The position numbers were made by a program, and so were the translations under genes. A stretch of DNA of 39,751 nt from a phage. The stretch's first letter is position 1. The number at the start of each line of letters is the position of its first letter. The stretch lies in sequence record PZ402302.1, one strand, 5' to 3'. The notes beneath the pieces are model-generated. The model ran no database searches. It was not told where the DNA came from and saw nothing but the letters and a program-made list of their open reading frames with translations. Of this stretch, positions 1,384 to 13,996 are shown piece after piece.

Positions 1384-3141
1384 ATGTCTACTCAAGCAAA
1401 CAAGAATGCGCTAATCATTGCGCAACTTAAGGGTGACTTCGTGGCCTTCCTGTTCGTCTTATGGAAGGCTCTGAACTTACCTAAACCAACCAAGTGTCAG
1501 ATTGATATGGCACGTACACTCGCTAATGGCGACCACAAGAAGTTTATCCTTCAGGCGTTCCGTGGTATCGGCAAGTCCTTTATCACCTGTGCGTTCGTCG
1601 TGTGGGTCTTATGGCGTGACCCTCAACTTAAGGTGCTCATCGTGTCTGCCTCCAAGGAACGTGCTGATGCTAACTCCATCTTCATCAAGAACATCATCGA
1701 CCTCCTTCCGTTCCTCTCTGAGTTAAAACCTCGACCGGGACAGCGAGACTCTGTGATTAGCTTCGACGTTGGCTTGGCTAAACCAGACCACTCACCCTCT
1801 GTGAAGTCTGTAGGTATCACTGGTCAGTTGACTGGTAGCCGTGCTGACATCATTATCGCAGATGACGTTGAGGTTCCCGGTAATAGCTCTACGAGTTCTG
1901 CCCGTGAGAAGCTCTGGACGTTGGTAACTGAGTTTGCTGCATTGCTTAAGCCACTGCCTACCTCTCGTGTTATCTACCTTGGTACACCTCAAACCGAGAT
2001 GACGCTCTACAAGGAACTTGAGGATAACAAAGGGTACAGCACAGTAATCTGGCCAGCACAGTATCCTCGTAATGATGCTGAGGCTCTCTACTATGGGGAC
2101 CGCTTGGCTCCGATGCTTAAGGCTGAATACGATGAAGGCTATGAGTTACTTCGTGGTCAACCTACTGACCCTGTTCGATTCGATATGGATGACCTCCGTG
2201 AGCGTGAACTCGAATACGGTAAAGCTGGCTACACTCTTCAGTTCATGCTTAACCCGAACCTTAGTGATGCCGAGAAGTACCCGCTACGGCTCCGTGACGC
2301 TATCGTGTGCGCAGTGGACACTGAACGTGCCCCATTGTCCTACCAGTGGTTGCCGAACCGTCAGAACCGCAATGAGGAACTTCCTAACGTGGGTCTGAAG
2401 GGTGACGACATTCACAGCTTCCATGTGTGTTCCTCTAAGACCGCTGAGTACCAGCAAAAGATTCTCGTCATTGACCCCTCTGGTCGTGGTAAGGATGAAA
2501 CAGGTTACGCAGTCCTCTACACCCTGAACGGCTACATCTACTTGATGGAGGTCGGTGGGTTCCGTGGTGGCTACGATGACCCTACCCTAGAGAAGCTCGC
2601 TAAGAAGGCCAAGCAGTGGAAGGTACAGACGGTCGTACACGAGAGTAACTTCGGTGATGGTATGTTCGGTAAGGTATTCTCTCCGGTTCTCCTGAAGCAC
2701 CACAAGTGTGCCTTAGAAGAGATTCGTGCTCGTGGCATGAAGGAGATGCGTATCTGCGATACTATCGAACCGTTGATGGGTGCACACCGCCTTATCATCC
2801 GTGACGAAGTAATCCGTGAGGACTACCAGACCGCTCGTGACCTCGATGGGAAGCATGATGTTCGCTACAGCGCGTTCTATCAGATGACCCGTATGACTCG
2901 TGAGAAGGGCGCTGTGGCACACGATGACCGACTTGATGCTATCGCATTGGGTATTGAGTTCCTTCGTGAAGGGATGCAGGTGGACTCTAAGGTTGGCGAG
3001 GAAGCTATGACCCTTGAGTTCCTTGAACACCACATGGAGAAACCTATCGTCGGTGGTGACATGGCTCGTGAGTTGGTGTCTGGAGGTGTGGACATCTACT
3101 ATGAGGATGACGGTGACGGAGAGTGCTTCATTGAGTGGTAG
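1384..3141 (+). CDS. 19: large terminase subunit / DNA maturase B (T7 gp19-like), 585 aa
   Basis: Length matches T7 gp19 (586 aa); [24 protein letters not shown]... and conserved blocks recalled from T7 gp19; RBS taggagg. Confidence 0.95.
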
Positions 3142-7060: not shown

Positions 7061-9712
7061 ATGACTAACGTAATCAACGCACCAAAGAACGACTTCTCTG
7101 ACATCGCTAACGCAATCATGCCGTACAACATTCTGGCTGACCATTACGGTGCACAGCTTGCAGCTACGCAGTTACAGCTTGAGCACGAAGCGCACACTGA
7201 GGGTGAGAAGCGTTTTCTTAAGGCAATGGAACGTCAAATCAAAGCGGGTGAGTTCGGTGATAACGCAGTGGCTAAACCGCTCCTGTCATCTCTCGCACCG
7301 AAGTTTATCGAGGCGTGGAACACTTGGTTCACTGAAGTGGAAGCGAAGCGTGGCAAGCGTCCAGTGGCTTACAATCTGGTACAGAAGGTTGCACCTGAAG
7401 CTGCTGCATTCATCACACTGAAGGTCACGCTGGCTTGCTTGACGAAAGAAGAGTTCACCAACCTGCAATCGGTCGCTACTAAGATTGGTCGTAGCATTGA
7501 AGATGAACTGCGTTTTGGTCGCATCCGTGACGAAGAAGCGAAGCACTTTAAGAACCACGTACAGGAGGCACTGAACAAGCGCGTTGGCATCGTCTACAAG
7601 AAAGCATTCATGCAAGCCGTAGAGGGTAAGATGCTTGATGCTGGTCAACTGCAAACCAAGTGGACTACATGGACACCTGAAGAATCAATTCACGTTGGTG
7701 TGCGCATGTTGGAACTGCTCATCGGGTCTACTGGTCTCGTTGAGTTACACCGCCCGTTCGCTGGGAACATCGAGAAGGATGGCGAGTACATCCAGTTAAC
7801 AGAACAATATGTAGACCTGCTGTCTAAACGTGCTGGTGCACTGGCTGCAATCGCTCCGATGTATCAGCCTTGCGTGGTCCCTCCGAAGCCTTGGACTTCT
7901 CCGGTTGGTGGTGGCTATTGGGCGGCTGGTCGCAAGCCTCTCTCTCTGGTTCGTACTGGTAGCAAGAAGGGACTGGAACGTTACAACGATGTGTACATGC
8001 CTGAAGTTTACAAGGCGGTGAACATCGCACAGAATACTCCTTGGAAGATTAACAAGAAGGTTCTGGCAGTGGTCAACGAGATTGTGAACTGGAAGCATTG
8101 CCCGGTTGAAGATGTACCTGCTCTCGAACGTGGTGAACTGCCTGTCAAACCTGAAGACATCGACACGAACGAAGCGGCTCTGAAAGCGTGGAAGAAAGCG
8201 GCCTCCGCAATCTATCGCAAAGAGAAAGCACGAGTTTCTCGCCGCATGAGCATGGAGTTCATGTTAGGTCAGGCCAATAAGTTCGCACAGTTCAAAGCTA
8301 TCTGGTTCCCAATGAACATGGACTGGCGCGGTCGTGTGTATGCTGTGCCGATGTTTAACCCGCAAGGCAACGACATGACCAAAGGCTTGTTGACGCTCGC
8401 TAAAGGTAAACCAATTGGTGTCGATGGGTACTACTGGCTGAAGATTCATGGTGCAAACACTGCTGGCGTGGACAAGGTGGACTTTGCAGAACGCATCAAG
8501 TTCATTGATGACAACCATGAGAACATCATGAGCGTAGCTGCTGACCCGATTGCTAACACTTGGTGGGCCGAGCAAGACTCTCCGTTCTGCTTCCTCGCGT
8601 TCTGCTTCGAGTATGCAGGAGTCCAGCACCACGGAATGAACTACAACTGCTCTCTTCCGCTGGCGTTTGATGGTAGCTGCTCCGGTATTCAGCACTTCTC
8701 CGCAATGCTTCGTGATGAAATTGGCGGTCGCGCTGTTAACTTACTGCCGAGCAAGGAAGTCCAAGACATCTACCGCATCGTAGCGGAACGTGTCAACGAG
8801 ATTCTGAACCAAGATGTTATCAACGGGACCGACAACGAAGTAGAGACCGTGACCAACAAGGACACAGGGGAAATCACTGAGAAGCTCAAGCTGGGCACTA
8901 AAGAACTAGCTGGTCAGTGGCTGGCCTACGGTGTGACCCGCAAGGTCACTAAGCGTTCGGTTATGACGTTGGCTTACGGTTCCAAAGAGTACGGATTCCG
9001 TGACCAAGTTCTTGAGGATACCATTCAGCCAGCTATCGACGATGGCAAGGGCTTGATGTTCACTCAACCGAACCAAGCGGCTGGCTATATGGCTAAACTG
9101 ATTTGGAACGCGGTAACGGTGACAGTGGTCGCAGCGGTTGAAGCAATGAACTGGCTGAAGTCTGCGGCTAAACTTCTAGCTGCTGAAGTCAAGGACAAGA
9201 AGACCAAAGAGGTTCTCCGCAAGCGCTGCGCGGTACATTGGGTTACTCCTGATGGCTTCCCGGTCTGGCAGGAATACAAGAAGCCAGTACAGACCCGCTT
9301 GAACCTGATGTTCTTAGGCCAGATTCGTCTACAGCCTACCGTGAACACCAACAAGGATAGCGGAATTGATGCTCGTAAGCAGGAGTCAGGCATCGCACCT
9401 AACTTTGTCCACTCAATGGATGGAAGCCACCTGCGCATGACTGTGGTCCGCTCCAATGAGGTCTACGGTGTGGAATCGTTCGCACTGATTCACGACTCCT
9501 TTGGTACTATCCCTGCTGATGCTGGCAACCTGTTTAAAGCAGTGCGCGAAACGATGGTCAACACTTACGAAGAGAACGATGTACTAGCAGACTTCTATGA
9601 GCAATTTGCTGACCAGTTACATGAATCGCAGCTTGACAAGATGCCTGAGATGCCAGCTAAAGGTTCTCTGGACCTGCAAGAAATCCTTAAGTCAGACTTT
9701 GCGTTTGCCTAA
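7061..9712 (+). CDS. 1: single-subunit DNA-dependent RNA polymerase (T7 gene 1-like), 883 aa
   Basis: Same length as T7 RNAP; long identical stretches by recall (ACLTKEEF-type palm/fingers blocks, specificity-loop region PTVNTNKDSGIDARKQESGIAPNFVHS, C-terminus SDFAFA). Confidence 0.97.
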   Translation: MTNVINAPKNDFSDIANAIMPYNILADHYGAQLAATQLQLEHEAHTEGEKRFLKAMERQIKAGEFGDNAVAKPLLSSLAPKFIEAWNTWFTEVEAKRGKRPVAYNLVQKVAPEAAAFITLKVTLACLTKEEFTNLQSVATKIGRSIEDELRFGRIRDEEAKHFKNHVQEALNKRVGIVYKKAFMQAVEGKMLDAGQLQTKWTTWTPEESIHVGVRMLELLIGSTGLVELHRPFAGNIEKDGEYIQLTEQYVDLLSKRAGALAAIAPMYQPCVVPPKPWTSPVGGGYWAAGRKPLSLVRTGSKKGLERYNDVYMPEVYKAVNIAQNTPWKINKKVLAVVNEIVNWKHCPVEDVPALERGELPVKPEDIDTNEAALKAWKKAASAIYRKEKARVSRRMSMEFMLGQANKFAQFKAIWFPMNMDWRGRVYAVPMFNPQGNDMTKGLLTLAKGKPIGVDGYYWLKIHGANTAGVDKVDFAERIKFIDDNHENIMSVAADPIANTWWAEQDSPFCFLAFCFEYAGVQHHGMNYNCSLPLAFDGSCSGIQHFSAMLRDEIGGRAVNLLPSKEVQDIYRIVAERVNEILNQDVINGTDNEVETVTNKDTGEITEKLKLGTKELAGQWLAYGVTRKVTKRSVMTLAYGSKEYGFRDQVLEDTIQPAIDDGKGLMFTQPNQAAGYMAKLIWNAVTVTVVAAVEAMNWLKSAAKLLAAEVKDKKTKEVLRKRCAVHWVTPDGFPVWQEYKKPVQTRLNLMFLGQIRLQPTVNTNKDSGIDARKQESGIAPNFVHSMDGSHLRMTVVRSNEVYGVESFALIHDSFGTIPADAGNLFKAVRETMVNTYEENDVLADFYEQFADQLHESQLDKMPEMPAKGSLDLQEILKSDFAFA

Positions 9713-10976: not shown

Positions 10977-12008
10977 ATGGAAATCACATTCAAGACTAAC
11001 CCATTCAAAGCAGTATCCTACGTTGAGTCTGCCATTAAGAAAGCACTCGACAAAGCTGGCTACCTGATTGCTGACACTAAGCATGATGGTGTACGTGGTA
11101 ACATCGTGGTTGACAATACGGCTGACTGCCTGTGGCTGTCCCGTGTCTCCAAGACCATCCCCGCGCTTGAGCACCTTAATGGGTTCGACCAACGCTGGGC
11201 TAATGTTCTCAAAGATGACCGCTGGATTTTCCCTGATGGCTTCATGCTGGATGGTGAACTGATGGTCAAAGGCGTAGACTTCAACACAGGGTCTGGCCTA
11301 CTGCGTACCAAGTGGCTCAAGAAGACAAACTGTGGATTTGATATTGGTGGAGTAGAGCCTCTCAAGGGGAGTAAAGTAGACTTCTGCTTAGACCCTAAGA
11401 AACTTAAGGTTGTCCTGTATGCCGCTATGCCGTATCACGATATGGTAGAAGGCAAAGAGTATGGCGTTATGTCCCTCCTGATGCAAGAGCATGTGCGTTC
11501 CCTCATTCCGGTTCTTAGTGAACACTTCCCGGAAATCACTTGGGAACTCTCTGAGGCCAAAGAAGTCTACGACATGGTAGAACTTCAGGAACTCTACGAG
11601 AAAGCCCGTGCCGATGGTCATGAAGGTCTGGTCGTCAAAGACCCGCTTGAAGTCTACAAGCGTGGCAAGAAGTCTGGCTGGTGGAAGATGAAGCCTGAGA
11701 ATGAAGCTGATGGTATTATCGTTGGCCTCAATTGGGGTACTCCGGGTCTGGCTAATGAAGGTAAAGTTATTGGCTTCGAGGTTCTCTTGGAGTCCGGTCG
11801 TGTAGTCTCTGCCAACAACATTAGCCAAGCGTTGATGGATGAGTTCACTGCTGCCGTCAAACATGCTGAGTCTGTGGGTATGGGTATGCCGTACACTGGC
11901 TTCGCCTGTCAGGTTGCCTACATGGAGGAAACTCCAGACGGTTCTCTGCGTCACCCATCGTTCGTTATGTTCCGTGGAACTGAGGATAACCCAAAGGAGA
12001 AAATGTAA
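10977..12008 (+). CDS. 1.3: ATP-dependent DNA ligase (T7 gp1.3-like), 343 aa
   Basis: Adenylation motif KHDGVRG; blocks TNPFKAVSYVESAIKKALD, WLSRVSKTIPALEHLNGFD, EGLVVKDP, SLRHPSFVMFRGTEDNP match recalled T7 ligase. Confidence 0.95.
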   Translation: MEITFKTNPFKAVSYVESAIKKALDKAGYLIADTKHDGVRGNIVVDNTADCLWLSRVSKTIPALEHLNGFDQRWANVLKDDRWIFPDGFMLDGELMVKGVDFNTGSGLLRTKWLKKTNCGFDIGGVEPLKGSKVDFCLDPKKLKVVLYAAMPYHDMVEGKEYGVMSLLMQEHVRSLIPVLSEHFPEITWELSEAKEVYDMVELQELYEKARADGHEGLVVKDPLEVYKRGKKSGWWKMKPENEADGIIVGLNWGTPGLANEGKVIGFEVLLESGRVVSANNISQALMDEFTAAVKHAESVGMGMPYTGFACQVAYMEETPDGSLRHPSFVMFRGTEDNPKEKM

Positions 12009-12190
12009 TGCTTATCTTTGACGAGAACGGTTGGAGAGTGTATCAACACCCACACCTGATGATATTCCACATATCAAAGTGGATGGAAGGAGATGACCGG
12101 AGAAGCTACGGGAGAACTTGGGACTACTTTACTGTCCATGAGTGCCATAGTATTAAGGAAGTCAAAGAGTACCTACGAAACAATATGTAA
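12008..12190 (+). CDS. hypothetical small protein, 60 aa (gene 1.4 position)
   Basis: ATG overlaps ligase stop (taATG); ends just before terminator TE; no recognised similarity. Confidence 0.5.
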   Translation: MLIFDENGWRVYQHPHLMIFHISKWMEGDDRRSYGRTWDYFTVHECHSIKEVKEYLRNNM

Positions 12191-12198
12191 AGACAAAT

Positions 12199-12231
12199 GG
12201 TCAGTCCTTAACGGGCTGGCCTTTTTGTGTT
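12199..12231 (+). terminator. intrinsic terminator for host RNAP (TE-like)
   Basis: ggtcagtcc-ttaac-gggctggcc stem (9 bp, two G-U pairs) followed by tttttgtgtttc; after the ligase region as T7 TE. Confidence 0.7.
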
Positions 12232-12232
12232 T

Positions 12233-12255
12233 CTATACGACTCACTATGGAGGAA
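12233..12255 (+). promoter_or_regulatory. phage RNAP promoter (phi1.5-like, variant)
   Basis: ctatacgactcactatggaggaac: core ACGACTCACTAT present, one base shorter before the start region. Confidence 0.6.
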
Positions 12256-12262
12256 CTACCTC

Positions 12263-12343
12263 ATGCTATTTCTAATTGCTGCTGCTATCTTTGCCACGTT
12301 TGCCTTCGTTATCATTGACGACAACTGCTGGCCGGATTGCTAA
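12263..12343 (+). CDS. tiny hydrophobic peptide, 26 aa (gene 1.5 position)
   Basis: MLFLIAAAIFATFAFVIIDDNCWPDC; preceded by ggagga; sits exactly between two phage promoters; hand-translated. Confidence 0.4.
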   Translation: MLFLIAAAIFATFAFVIIDDNCWPDC

Positions 12344-12363
12344 TACGACTCACCTATGGAGGA
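12341..12363 (+). promoter_or_regulatory. phage RNAP promoter (phi1.6-like, variant)
   Basis: taatacgactcacctatggaggac: -17 to -5 perfect, -4 to -1 CTAT. Confidence 0.6.
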
Positions 12364-12370
12364 CACAACT

Positions 12371-12634
12371 ATGTTAAGACTTCACTTCAACAAATCTAAT
12401 GGCATCTTCTCTGCGCGTGGCGCTGACCGCTCTACGGTTCTGGCCTCTGAGAAACACGCAGTCATCCCTAAAGTGCTTGGCTCGACCATTGAGTTATCAC
12501 CTCGTGTTCACGCTGTAATCACCACTGGCTTATATAAAGAAGCGACCACTGGCTCCCGGCCTTTCATTCCGGTTCTCGTCACCCGTTTTCCTAAAGTCCG
12601 TCTGGTAATTGCGCGTATCAAGGAGGTGTTCTAA
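12371..12634 (+). CDS. hypothetical protein, 87 aa (gene 1.6 position)
   Basis: ATG with ggagga RBS formed by the promoter start region; MLRLHFNKSNGIFSARGADRSTV... Confidence 0.6.
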   Translation: MLRLHFNKSNGIFSARGADRSTVLASEKHAVIPKVLGSTIELSPRVHAVITTGLYKEATTGSRPFIPVLVTRFPKVRLVIARIKEVF

Positions 12635-12945
12635 TGGTCTGCATGGCATGTTTAGAGAATGATGACCGCTACCCTCACACCTGTGAACCTGTAGCTAAAC
12701 CACAAGATATAGAGGGTGTTCGCAAGCCGAGCCACTATATGTTGTTTGATGACATTGAGGCTATCGAGGTGATTGCCCGTTCGATGACCCGTGAACAGTT
12801 CAAAGGGTACTGCTTAGGGAATATCCTTAAGTACCGCCTCCGTGCTGGTAAGAAATCCGAACTGGCATTCTTAGAGAAGGACATGGCGAAAGCTGGGTTC
12901 TACGGTGAACTGTACGAGAAACATAAAGGTAAATGCCATGCTTAA
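12634..12945 (+). CDS. 1.7: gp1.7-like protein (short form of the T7 nucleoside monophosphate kinase family), 103 aa
   Basis: CMACLENDDRYPHTC and C-terminal KPSHYMLFDDIEAIEVIARSMT.EQFKGYC.GNILKYRLRAGKKSEL match recalled T7 gp1.7 termini; middle of the 196-aa T7 protein absent. Confidence 0.6.
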   Translation: MVCMACLENDDRYPHTCEPVAKPQDIEGVRKPSHYMLFDDIEAIEVIARSMTREQFKGYCLGNILKYRLRAGKKSELAFLEKDMAKAGFYGELYEKHKGKCHA

Positions 12946-13036
12946 ACCTAGCGAATGGTGTGAGCGTATGTTTGAAAAGACAGGTAACACCGACTACCTT
13001 GAATTATATAATCACTGGAAGGAGAGAGGACAATGA
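12938..13036 (+). CDS. gp1.8-like small protein, 32 aa
   Basis: [32 protein letters not shown]; overlaps 1.7 stop and gene 2 start; hand-translated. Confidence 0.45.
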
Positions 13037-13224
13037 GCACTCTGAATAAAGGGTCACTGGTAAACGGTGACAAGAAGTTCTTCGCTACGGTAGAAGGCCA
13101 AGGCCAATCGTTCGAAGTACCTGTGTTCGCTACGTCTCTTGAAGAGGCCAATGAGTTAGCTGAGTGGCAATACGTCCCTGCTGGCTTCGCTGTAACACGC
13201 ATCCGTCCAGACCGTAAGGTTTAA
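13033..13224 (+). CDS. 2: inhibitor of host RNA polymerase (T7 Gp2-like), 63 aa
   Basis: ...[34 protein letters not shown] matches recalled T7 Gp2. Confidence 0.9.
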
Positions 13225-13244
13225 TAGGACTCACTAATGGGAGA
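13222..13244 (+). promoter_or_regulatory. phage RNAP promoter (phi2.5-like)
   Basis: ttaataggactcactaatgggagacac (-12/-11 GG instead of CG). Confidence 0.65.
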
Positions 13245-13294
13245 CACTAACGTTTCCCCACTTTAACTTTCAGAAACTTTAAAGGAGAATCATT

Positions 13295-13996
13295 ATGGCA
13301 TTCGCAAAACGTAAAGTATTCACTTCCGCTCGTGGTGTTGCTGAACCTTACTGCTATCTGGCAAAGCCGGACTTCGGTAGTGGTGACTTCAAGAACGAAC
13401 GTGGTGTCTATAAAGTATCGCTGACTGTACCCAACGACGACCCTCGCTGTCAGAAGATGATTGACGAGATTGTCGAAGCCCATGAGACGGACTACGCTGC
13501 TCGACTCGAAGAGTACGAAGCGAACCCGCCGAAAGTTGTCAAGGGTAAGAAACCGCTGAAGCCATATGTTGGCGACATGCCTTTCATGGATAACGAAGAC
13601 GGAACCACTACGTTCAACTTCAAGTGCTACGGCTCGTTCACTGACAAGAAGACTGGTGAGAACAAACCAATCGACTTGGCTATTGTGGACTCCAAAGGTA
13701 AGCGCATCCGTGGTGAGCGTCCAGCTATCTCTGGTGGCTCTGAACTGAAGATTAAATACACTCTGTTCCCTTACGGTTGGTCTGCTGTGGCAGGTGCTTC
13801 CGTTAAGCTGCAACTGGATTCCGTAATGCTGATTAAGCTGGTCGAGTTCGGTGGTGGTGATGACGATTGGGGTGATGAAATCGAAGAAGACGGCTACGAA
13901 GCTGATGAAGCACAGACCCGTCAACGTCCTCAAAACGACTCTGGCTGGAATGAAGAACCAGAAGAGGACGATGAAGACGAGGATGGTGATTTTTAA
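13295..13996 (+). CDS. 2.5: single-stranded DNA-binding protein (T7 gp2.5-like), 233 aa
   Basis: MAFAKRKVFTSARGVAEPYCYLAKPD... and acidic C-terminal tail ending DEDEDGDF as in T7 gp2.5. Confidence 0.95.
   Translation: MAFAKRKVFTSARGVAEPYCYLAKPDFGSGDFKNERGVYKVSLTVPNDDPRCQKMIDEIVEAHETDYAARLEEYEANPPKVVKGKKPLKPYVGDMPFMDNEDGTTTFNFKCYGSFTDKKTGENKPIDLAIVDSKGKRIRGERPAISGGSELKIKYTLFPYGWSAVAGASVKLQLDSVMLIKLVEFGGGDDDWGDEIEEDGYEADEAQTRQRPQNDSGWNEEPEEDDEDEDGDF

Follow-up and report, generated by a model that had tools for sequence, protein, structure and literature searches.

Gene 1.7 of the phage genome PZ402302.1 is probably an intact, expressed orthologue of T7 gene 1.7 in the short architecture of Berlinvirus-type T7-like phages, with a functional core that acts like T7 gp1.7. 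Comparisons with related genomes indicate that this short gene is the usual, intact form in Berlinvirus, already deposited and annotated and neither damaged nor unusual. The genus-normal protein consists of a 15-residue CCHC cassette, an 8-residue linker and a helical DUF3310 core of about 78 residues. As a routinely annotated orthologue that was already known, the feature is itself of little consequence. It bears, however, on the "nucleotide kinase" label, which is being extended from T7 gp1.7, of 196 aa, to proteins that have nothing but the DUF3310 core in common with it.

Gene 1.7 in its locus and its T7 counterpart

The window, by which we mean the whole 39,751-nt stretch of DNA that was analysed, is a complete T7-like phage genome in a circular permutation of the conventional T7 map: the large terminase gene lies near its left end (1384-3141) and the RNA polymerase gene at 7061-9712. 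Because of this permutation, gene 1.7 lies at about 12.6 kb rather than at about 8.2 kb, its position on the T7 map. The 1.3-kb locus that we compared (12000-13300) shows 99.9% DNA identity to Escherichia phage nasanit, of the genus Berlinvirus, and by sequence the window phage is itself a Berlinvirus. A phi1.6-like phage-RNA-polymerase promoter, taatacgactcacctatggagga (12341-12363, plus strand), matches as an identical 23-mer the promoter annotated as phi1.6 in phage BA14, and genes 1.6, 1.7, 1.8 and 2 are its expected targets. Gene 1.6, which encodes an 87-aa protein of the BC10 family (12371-12634, plus strand; Pfam BC10, E 4.7e-19) and has the coordinates of the nasanit CDS, ends in a TAA that overlaps the ATG of gene 1.7 (TAATG), and a Shine-Dalgarno sequence, AAGGAGGT (12620-12627, plus strand), can be read 6 nt 5' of that ATG. 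Gene 1.7 has a strong ribosome-binding site and is translationally coupled to gene 1.6. Its open reading frame (12634-12945, plus strand), annotated as "nucleotide kinase" in nasanit, starts at the first ATG downstream of an in-frame stop and predicts a product of 11.9 kDa. In the initial annotation the product had been described as a possible natural short isoform, a term that, in its translational sense, does not suit a frame starting at the first ATG with a ribosome-binding site of its own. Gene 1.8 (32 aa; 12938-13036, plus strand), placed from the coordinates of the nasanit CDS, shares its first 8 nt with the end of gene 1.7. Positional orthology to T7 gp1.7 is evident from the slot between gene 1.6 (BC10) and genes 1.8 and 2 and from the stop/start overlaps, T7 genes 1.6, 1.7 and 1.8 having the same locus, order and overlaps as in the window.

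Alignment by BLASTP and MAFFT with the T7 reference (gp1.7, NP_041967, 196 aa; NC_001604, 8166-8756) reveals two blocks shared by the 103-aa window protein and T7 gp1.7. Residues 3-17 of the window protein, CMACLENDDRYPHTC, correspond to T7 residues 21-35, CIACLEKDDRYPHTC, with 13 of the 15 positions identical (E 3e-08), and residues 26-103 are near-identical to T7 residues 119-196, the C-terminal block giving an E value of 4e-51 overall. T7 residues ~36-118 (about 83 aa), which in T7 hold a CxxxCxxxxCxxC cluster and Met42, have no counterpart in the window protein; the 8-residue linker EPVAKPQD (12685-12708, plus strand) is found instead, at what protein and DNA alignments identify as the junction carrying central cassettes in other phages. 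The first 19 residues of T7 gp1.7, the leader MGLLDGEAWEKENPPVQAT, are also missing, and the window protein begins MVC, straight at the CxxC motif. The initial annotation had called the gene shortened (103 aa against 196 aa in T7), with the N-terminal CxxC motif and the C-terminal block retained and the central part lost. The reading frame and the T7 alignment confirm each of these statements; alignment to T7 gp1.7 had been named beforehand as a possible refutation, and the T7 protein does hold both flanking blocks. The absence of T7 residues 1-19 had gone unmentioned.

In the window protein, Pfam DUF3310 (PF11753) matches residues 29-90 (12718-12903) with 79.5 bits (gathering cut-off 24), inside the core at residues 26-103 (12709-12942, plus strand), and the best PHROG is 2585, "nucleotide kinase" (E 3.7e-58). 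As scored, these DUF3310, PHROG and T7 matches are far beyond chance. The T7 and window proteins are therefore alike in gene position, in overlapping start and stop codons, in the CxxC-x8-HxC motif and in the DUF3310 core.

Cassette architectures in the gp1.7 family

Four modules in front of the core were defined by alignment: A, the leader MGLLDGEAWEKENPPVQAT; B, the CCHC motif; C1, the T7 central block with CxxxCxxxxCxxC; and C2, KTKHTSECTIWNGAGVCSCTK. The core starts at (K/Q)PQDIEGV. In these terms T7 gp1.7 (196 aa) is A+B+C1+core, and the window protein, like that of Berlin, is B+core, without leader A and without central C1. There are several other arrangements: A+B+core in Kvp1 (121 aa), B+C2+core in BA14 (123 aa), A+B+C2+core in FE44 (140 aa) and C1+core in K1F and pO103 (155 aa in the latter), while PC127 has a 96-aa protein, A'+core. 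Core-only proteins of 82-84 aa, A+core proteins and B+C1+core proteins are further combinations in the family. The products are 103 aa long in 285P, SPLA4 and ETEP21B and 104 aa in Berlin, Yep-phi and PZJ0206. Those of Berlin, Yep-phi, 285P and nasanit (103-104 aa) share the architecture and the B-to-core junction of the window protein with point differences only; the nasanit protein is identical to it, and NCBI has the exact 103-aa protein, within a 22-member cluster. Codon 102 (12937-12939) encodes His in the window, in nasanit and in the identical NCBI proteins, whereas the remaining 12 aligned phages have Tyr, giving KCYA or KCYD instead of KCHA. This change is probably neutral, the position varying among R, K and Y in the wider family.

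Two individual phages merit separate comment. The T3-type gp1.7 of phiYeO3-12 (156 aa; locus L010, 515-985) contains neither the CxxC motif nor the T7 central block; instead, about 85 unrelated residues (…KGLTGTVQGYSHTGRVKVRFG…) stand N-terminal to the same core and represent another cassette type. In ETEP21B (locus L012, 657-968) the deposited gene 1.7 starts at an internal ATG (762-968, 68 aa), while the full 103-aa frame is present with its CCHC motif intact, and the deposited start site is likely to be mis-annotated.

The short form is widely distributed. When the first 127 nt of gene 1.7, from the start through the B-to-core junction, served as a blastn query, 96 phage records matched, and in 70 of the 96 at least 80% of the query was covered, mostly in one piece; more than 30 Yersinia pestis phages are among these. 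The short-form junction is conserved in about 70 genomes, across phages of Yersinia, Escherichia, Salmonella, Enterobacter and Erwinia. The best 120 clusters at 90% identity, drawn from 5.8 billion proteins, form a continuous series of lengths between 84 and 181 aa, and more than 25 of these clusters have the B+core form; core-only proteins are also present, together with other Cys/His-rich cassettes (HYCxxC...CxC, HKDHC...CDC and CDSTTYCEAC). Clustering at 50% identity gave 2312 family clusters at E <= 1e-3, and gp1.7 lengths family-wide are 82-341 aa. In the best 150 of these 2312 clusters, 1-266 aa precede the core (median 78.5), which is C-terminal or nearly so in most (median 2 residues after it, maximum 102). 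Because lengths are continuous in close relatives and span 82-341 aa across the family, T7 is not the reference state for gp1.7 length, and "shortened" is an artefact of using T7 as the yardstick. By alignment, gp1.7 is a modular protein in which a near-invariant C-terminal DUF3310 core is preceded by anything from 0 to about 260 aa of interchangeable N-terminal cassettes, many being rich in Cys and His.

Nucleotide identities along gene 1.7 are discordant. T7 and Kvp1 are 92.6% identical in the 5' cassettes and 77.6% in the core, whereas Kvp1 and the window are 79.6% identical in the 5' cassettes and 94.9% in the core; the corresponding values for BA14 and FE44 are 80.7% and 99.2%. For T7 against either Kvp1 or FE44, the leader and CCHC cassette give about 92% and the DUF3310 core about 77%. 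The 5'-end regions concerned are 12634-12708 in the window, 1767-2120 in locus L002, 655-765 in L005 and 656-830 in L007. Disagreement of this kind indicates that 5' cassettes have recently been exchanged between the Teseptimavirus and Berlinvirus lineages. The Berlinvirus variants all converge again at one point, where ...AAACCAC is followed by AAGATATAGAGGGTGT (equivalently, ...AAACCAC followed by AAGATATAGAGG), and N-terminal cassettes could be replaced by recombination at two conserved sites, the end of gene 1.6 and the start of the core. Cassette exchange is the simplest account of these observations, and a single deletion from a T7-like ancestor fits them less well. A deletion through short direct repeats in T7 (DDRYPHTC... 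and DPRKPHLNK...) was considered and rejected, given that synonymous sites between the window gene and T7 are saturated (dS >2) and that cassette exchange fits better.

Function of the DUF3310 core and rival readings

Family-wide conservation is confined to the core. Among 150 representatives at 50% identity, all columns that are at least 90% conserved fall within window residues 29-101, and the part that T7 gp1.7 has in excess of the window protein contains no such column. The window protein has the conserved C-terminal helical core of the Pfam DUF3310 family and retains all of the family-invariant residues (P32, H34, Y35, E42, G58, C60, G62, N63, K66, Y67, R68, R70, G72, K74, K86, Y90 and C101). 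Within the same 150 representatives H34, C60 and C101 (12733-12735, 12811-12813 and 12934-12936) are at least 91% conserved and H97 (12922-12924) is 57% conserved; within the domain these four residues may make up a metal or redox site, the protein being reported as Mg2+-independent. The AF2 model of the window protein (mean pLDDT 74.6) has core helices at residues 43-50, 53-73 and 77-100 (pLDDT 79-93) and an N-terminal 40 residues of low confidence (pLDDT 45-67). In the model of a 179-aa B+C1+core homologue (P0035; pTM 0.36), the C1 cassette (residues ~25-80) is compact (pLDDT 82-88) and the core (residues 116-175) has pLDDT 80-88. Because these two units are predicted to be separate and are joined by a linker of about 33 residues with pLDDT of only 36-38, the central cassette looks like a tethered accessory domain outside the core fold.

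According to the literature, T7 gp1.7 is a kinase for dTMP and dGMP that needs no divalent cation; it is non-essential under laboratory conditions and gives rise to dideoxythymidine sensitivity, and it is the only protein for which the kinase activity is described as demonstrated. The family-wide conservation pattern and the predicted independence of the domains lead us to place the chemistry in the core, and the 103-aa protein is expected to be active for that reason. If the core is indeed the functional unit, the window protein would be a metal-independent dTMP/dGMP kinase like T7 gp1.7, feeding phage DNA synthesis, and the N-terminal cassettes would be exchangeable accessory modules. From these sequence data and models we lean modestly towards the 103-aa protein being active as a kinase. 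The core-only, B+core and C1+core forms constitute a natural deletion series for core sufficiency.

That the gene might be a decaying, internally deleted remnant of a T7-length gene, with an inactive product, is suggested by a length 93 aa below that of T7 gp1.7, by the absence of a block that T7 has, and by the dispensability of gene 1.7 for T7 in the laboratory. Nevertheless, dN/dS values calculated by the Nei-Gojobori method against short-form relatives lie between 0.04 and 0.19 over the gene as a whole and between 0.04 and 0.12 in the core, at substantial synonymous divergence (dS 0.13-0.35); the N-terminal 25 codons, which offer few sites, give 0-0.4. Moreover, the junction is conserved in phages of five host genera, the frame is intact, translation signals and coupling are in place, and every family-invariant residue is kept. 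We are therefore highly confident that gp1.7 of the window is a selected, functional protein and regard decay, which the selection and distribution data effectively refute, as extremely improbable. Of the two possibilities in the initial annotation, a natural short form survives, as the usual Berlinvirus form in about 70 genomes, under purifying selection and with its invariant residues; an "internally deleted, possibly inactive" version, if understood as decay, does not.

A functional protein need not be a nucleotide kinase, however, and a second reading, which we consider rather unlikely, is that the T7 activity needs the central Cys-rich cassette and that the DUF3310 core has been selected for another role. 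Oligomerisation is one candidate for this role; others are host-directed, toxic or takeover activities such as those of SaV and the mycobacteriophage DUF3310 proteins. T7 gp1.7 is reportedly purified as two co-purifying, equally active forms, the smaller of which comes from an internal start, and is said to be a large homo-oligomer of about 12 subunits. We take the short isoform to begin at Met42 and hence to comprise the central cassette and the core, which would make it the opposite choice of modules to the B+core of the window protein. An AAGGAG ribosome-binding site 8 nt upstream of Met42 in T7 fits the reported internal start, and the calculated masses of full-length T7 gp1.7 (22.18 kDa) and of residues 42-196 (17.7 kDa) fit the two reported forms. 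If the forms are as reported, cassettes A and B would be dispensable for catalysis in T7, given that the smaller active form starts internally; both active forms would keep C1, which is missing from the window protein and to that extent counts against the kinase reading. In addition, searches of the PDB identified no recognisable nucleotide-binding fold for the core: a sequence search with T7 gp1.7 gave nothing at E <= 1 and Foldseek with the long-form model returned only matches at E of 5 or more, among them a MazG match (probability 0.10) that we discount. NCBIfam and PADLOC searches produced no matches. The window protein has neither a Walker A motif nor the alpha/beta NMP-kinase fold, and no kinase match came from Pfam or NCBIfam and none from the PDB by sequence or structure. 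With the P-loop (d)NMP kinases, such as thymidylate kinase and T4 gp1, only the presumed reaction (dNMP to dNDP) is shared. Published work on DUF3310 proteins also allows the core a role other than, or beyond, that of a kinase. T7 gp1.7 was recently reported as an activator of the Avs5 defence protein EfAvs5; SaV, an early DUF3310 protein of a lactococcal phage, is toxic and triggers AbiV; and mycobacteriophage DUF3310 proteins are highly cytotoxic when overexpressed. SaV and the mycobacteriophage proteins, whose relation to the window protein is taken from the literature, are known for toxicity (and, for SaV, AbiV triggering) rather than for kinase activity. Against a catalytic requirement for the central cassette, most family members lack it and have unrelated cassettes or nothing in its place, so that it is unlikely to be the seat of a conserved chemistry; in the AF2 model the cassette does not pack against the core; and the invariant basic and aromatic residues of the core (K66, R68, R70, K74, K86, H34, Y35, Y67 and Y90) would fit a nucleotide or phosphate site. 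The defence reports also underlie a further proposal, that host defence has selected the short form as an adaptation, with cassettes being shuffled or lost in response to Avs5- or AbiV-type abortive-infection sensors that recognise the gp1.7 family. Two unrelated abortive-infection systems have been reported to respond to DUF3310 proteins, and a sensed module could explain the diversity of cassettes; the extreme cassette repertoire beside an invariant core, and the recombination hot spot with discordant identities at the 5' end of the gene, are consistent with this. An invariant core would be the more obvious target for recognition, however, and T7-like phages are commonly mosaic at gene boundaries without an immune cause. 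We think this adaptation improbable as an explanation of the short form, and it is compatible with, and not exclusive of, a short orthologue whose core acts like T7 gp1.7. A combined version is similarly improbable in our estimation: here the core of about 78 residues would be self-sufficient, possibly the smallest known nucleotide kinase, with cassettes swapped under pressure from Avs5 or AbiV and the Berlinvirus form evading defence rather than being neutral.

Cassette B and other features of the locus

Cassette B of the window protein (residues 3-17; 12640-12684, plus strand) has the form C-x2-C-x8-H-x-C, with four Cys/His residues at fixed spacing as in a putative zinc knuckle. The pattern C..C-x6-10-H.C recurs in most cassette-B homologues among the 120 clusters, with variable residues between the ligands. 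One ligand is lost in a few long forms, and a 114-aa variant from which the last Cys is gone has an extra Cys upstream, leaving four candidate ligands. We infer that cassette B is a small metal-binding knuckle, putatively for zinc; residues 1-20 of the window protein are modelled by AF2 with pLDDT values of only 63-67. Phage ETEP21B carries a Y13C substitution within the CCHC motif (DDRCPHTC).

Upstream of gene 1.6 and its promoter, the window contains a 60-aa open reading frame (12008-12190, plus strand) whose ATG overlaps the stop codon of the ligase gene. A Pfam search with its product gave no match. The frame is annotated as "hypothetical protein" in nasanit, SPLA4 and pO103 and is apparently missing in 285P, BA14, Kvp1 and most other Berlinviruses, for which matches begin only at query nt ~182-199. 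The frame may be a small accessory gene that was inserted after the ligase gene, ahead of the TE terminator.
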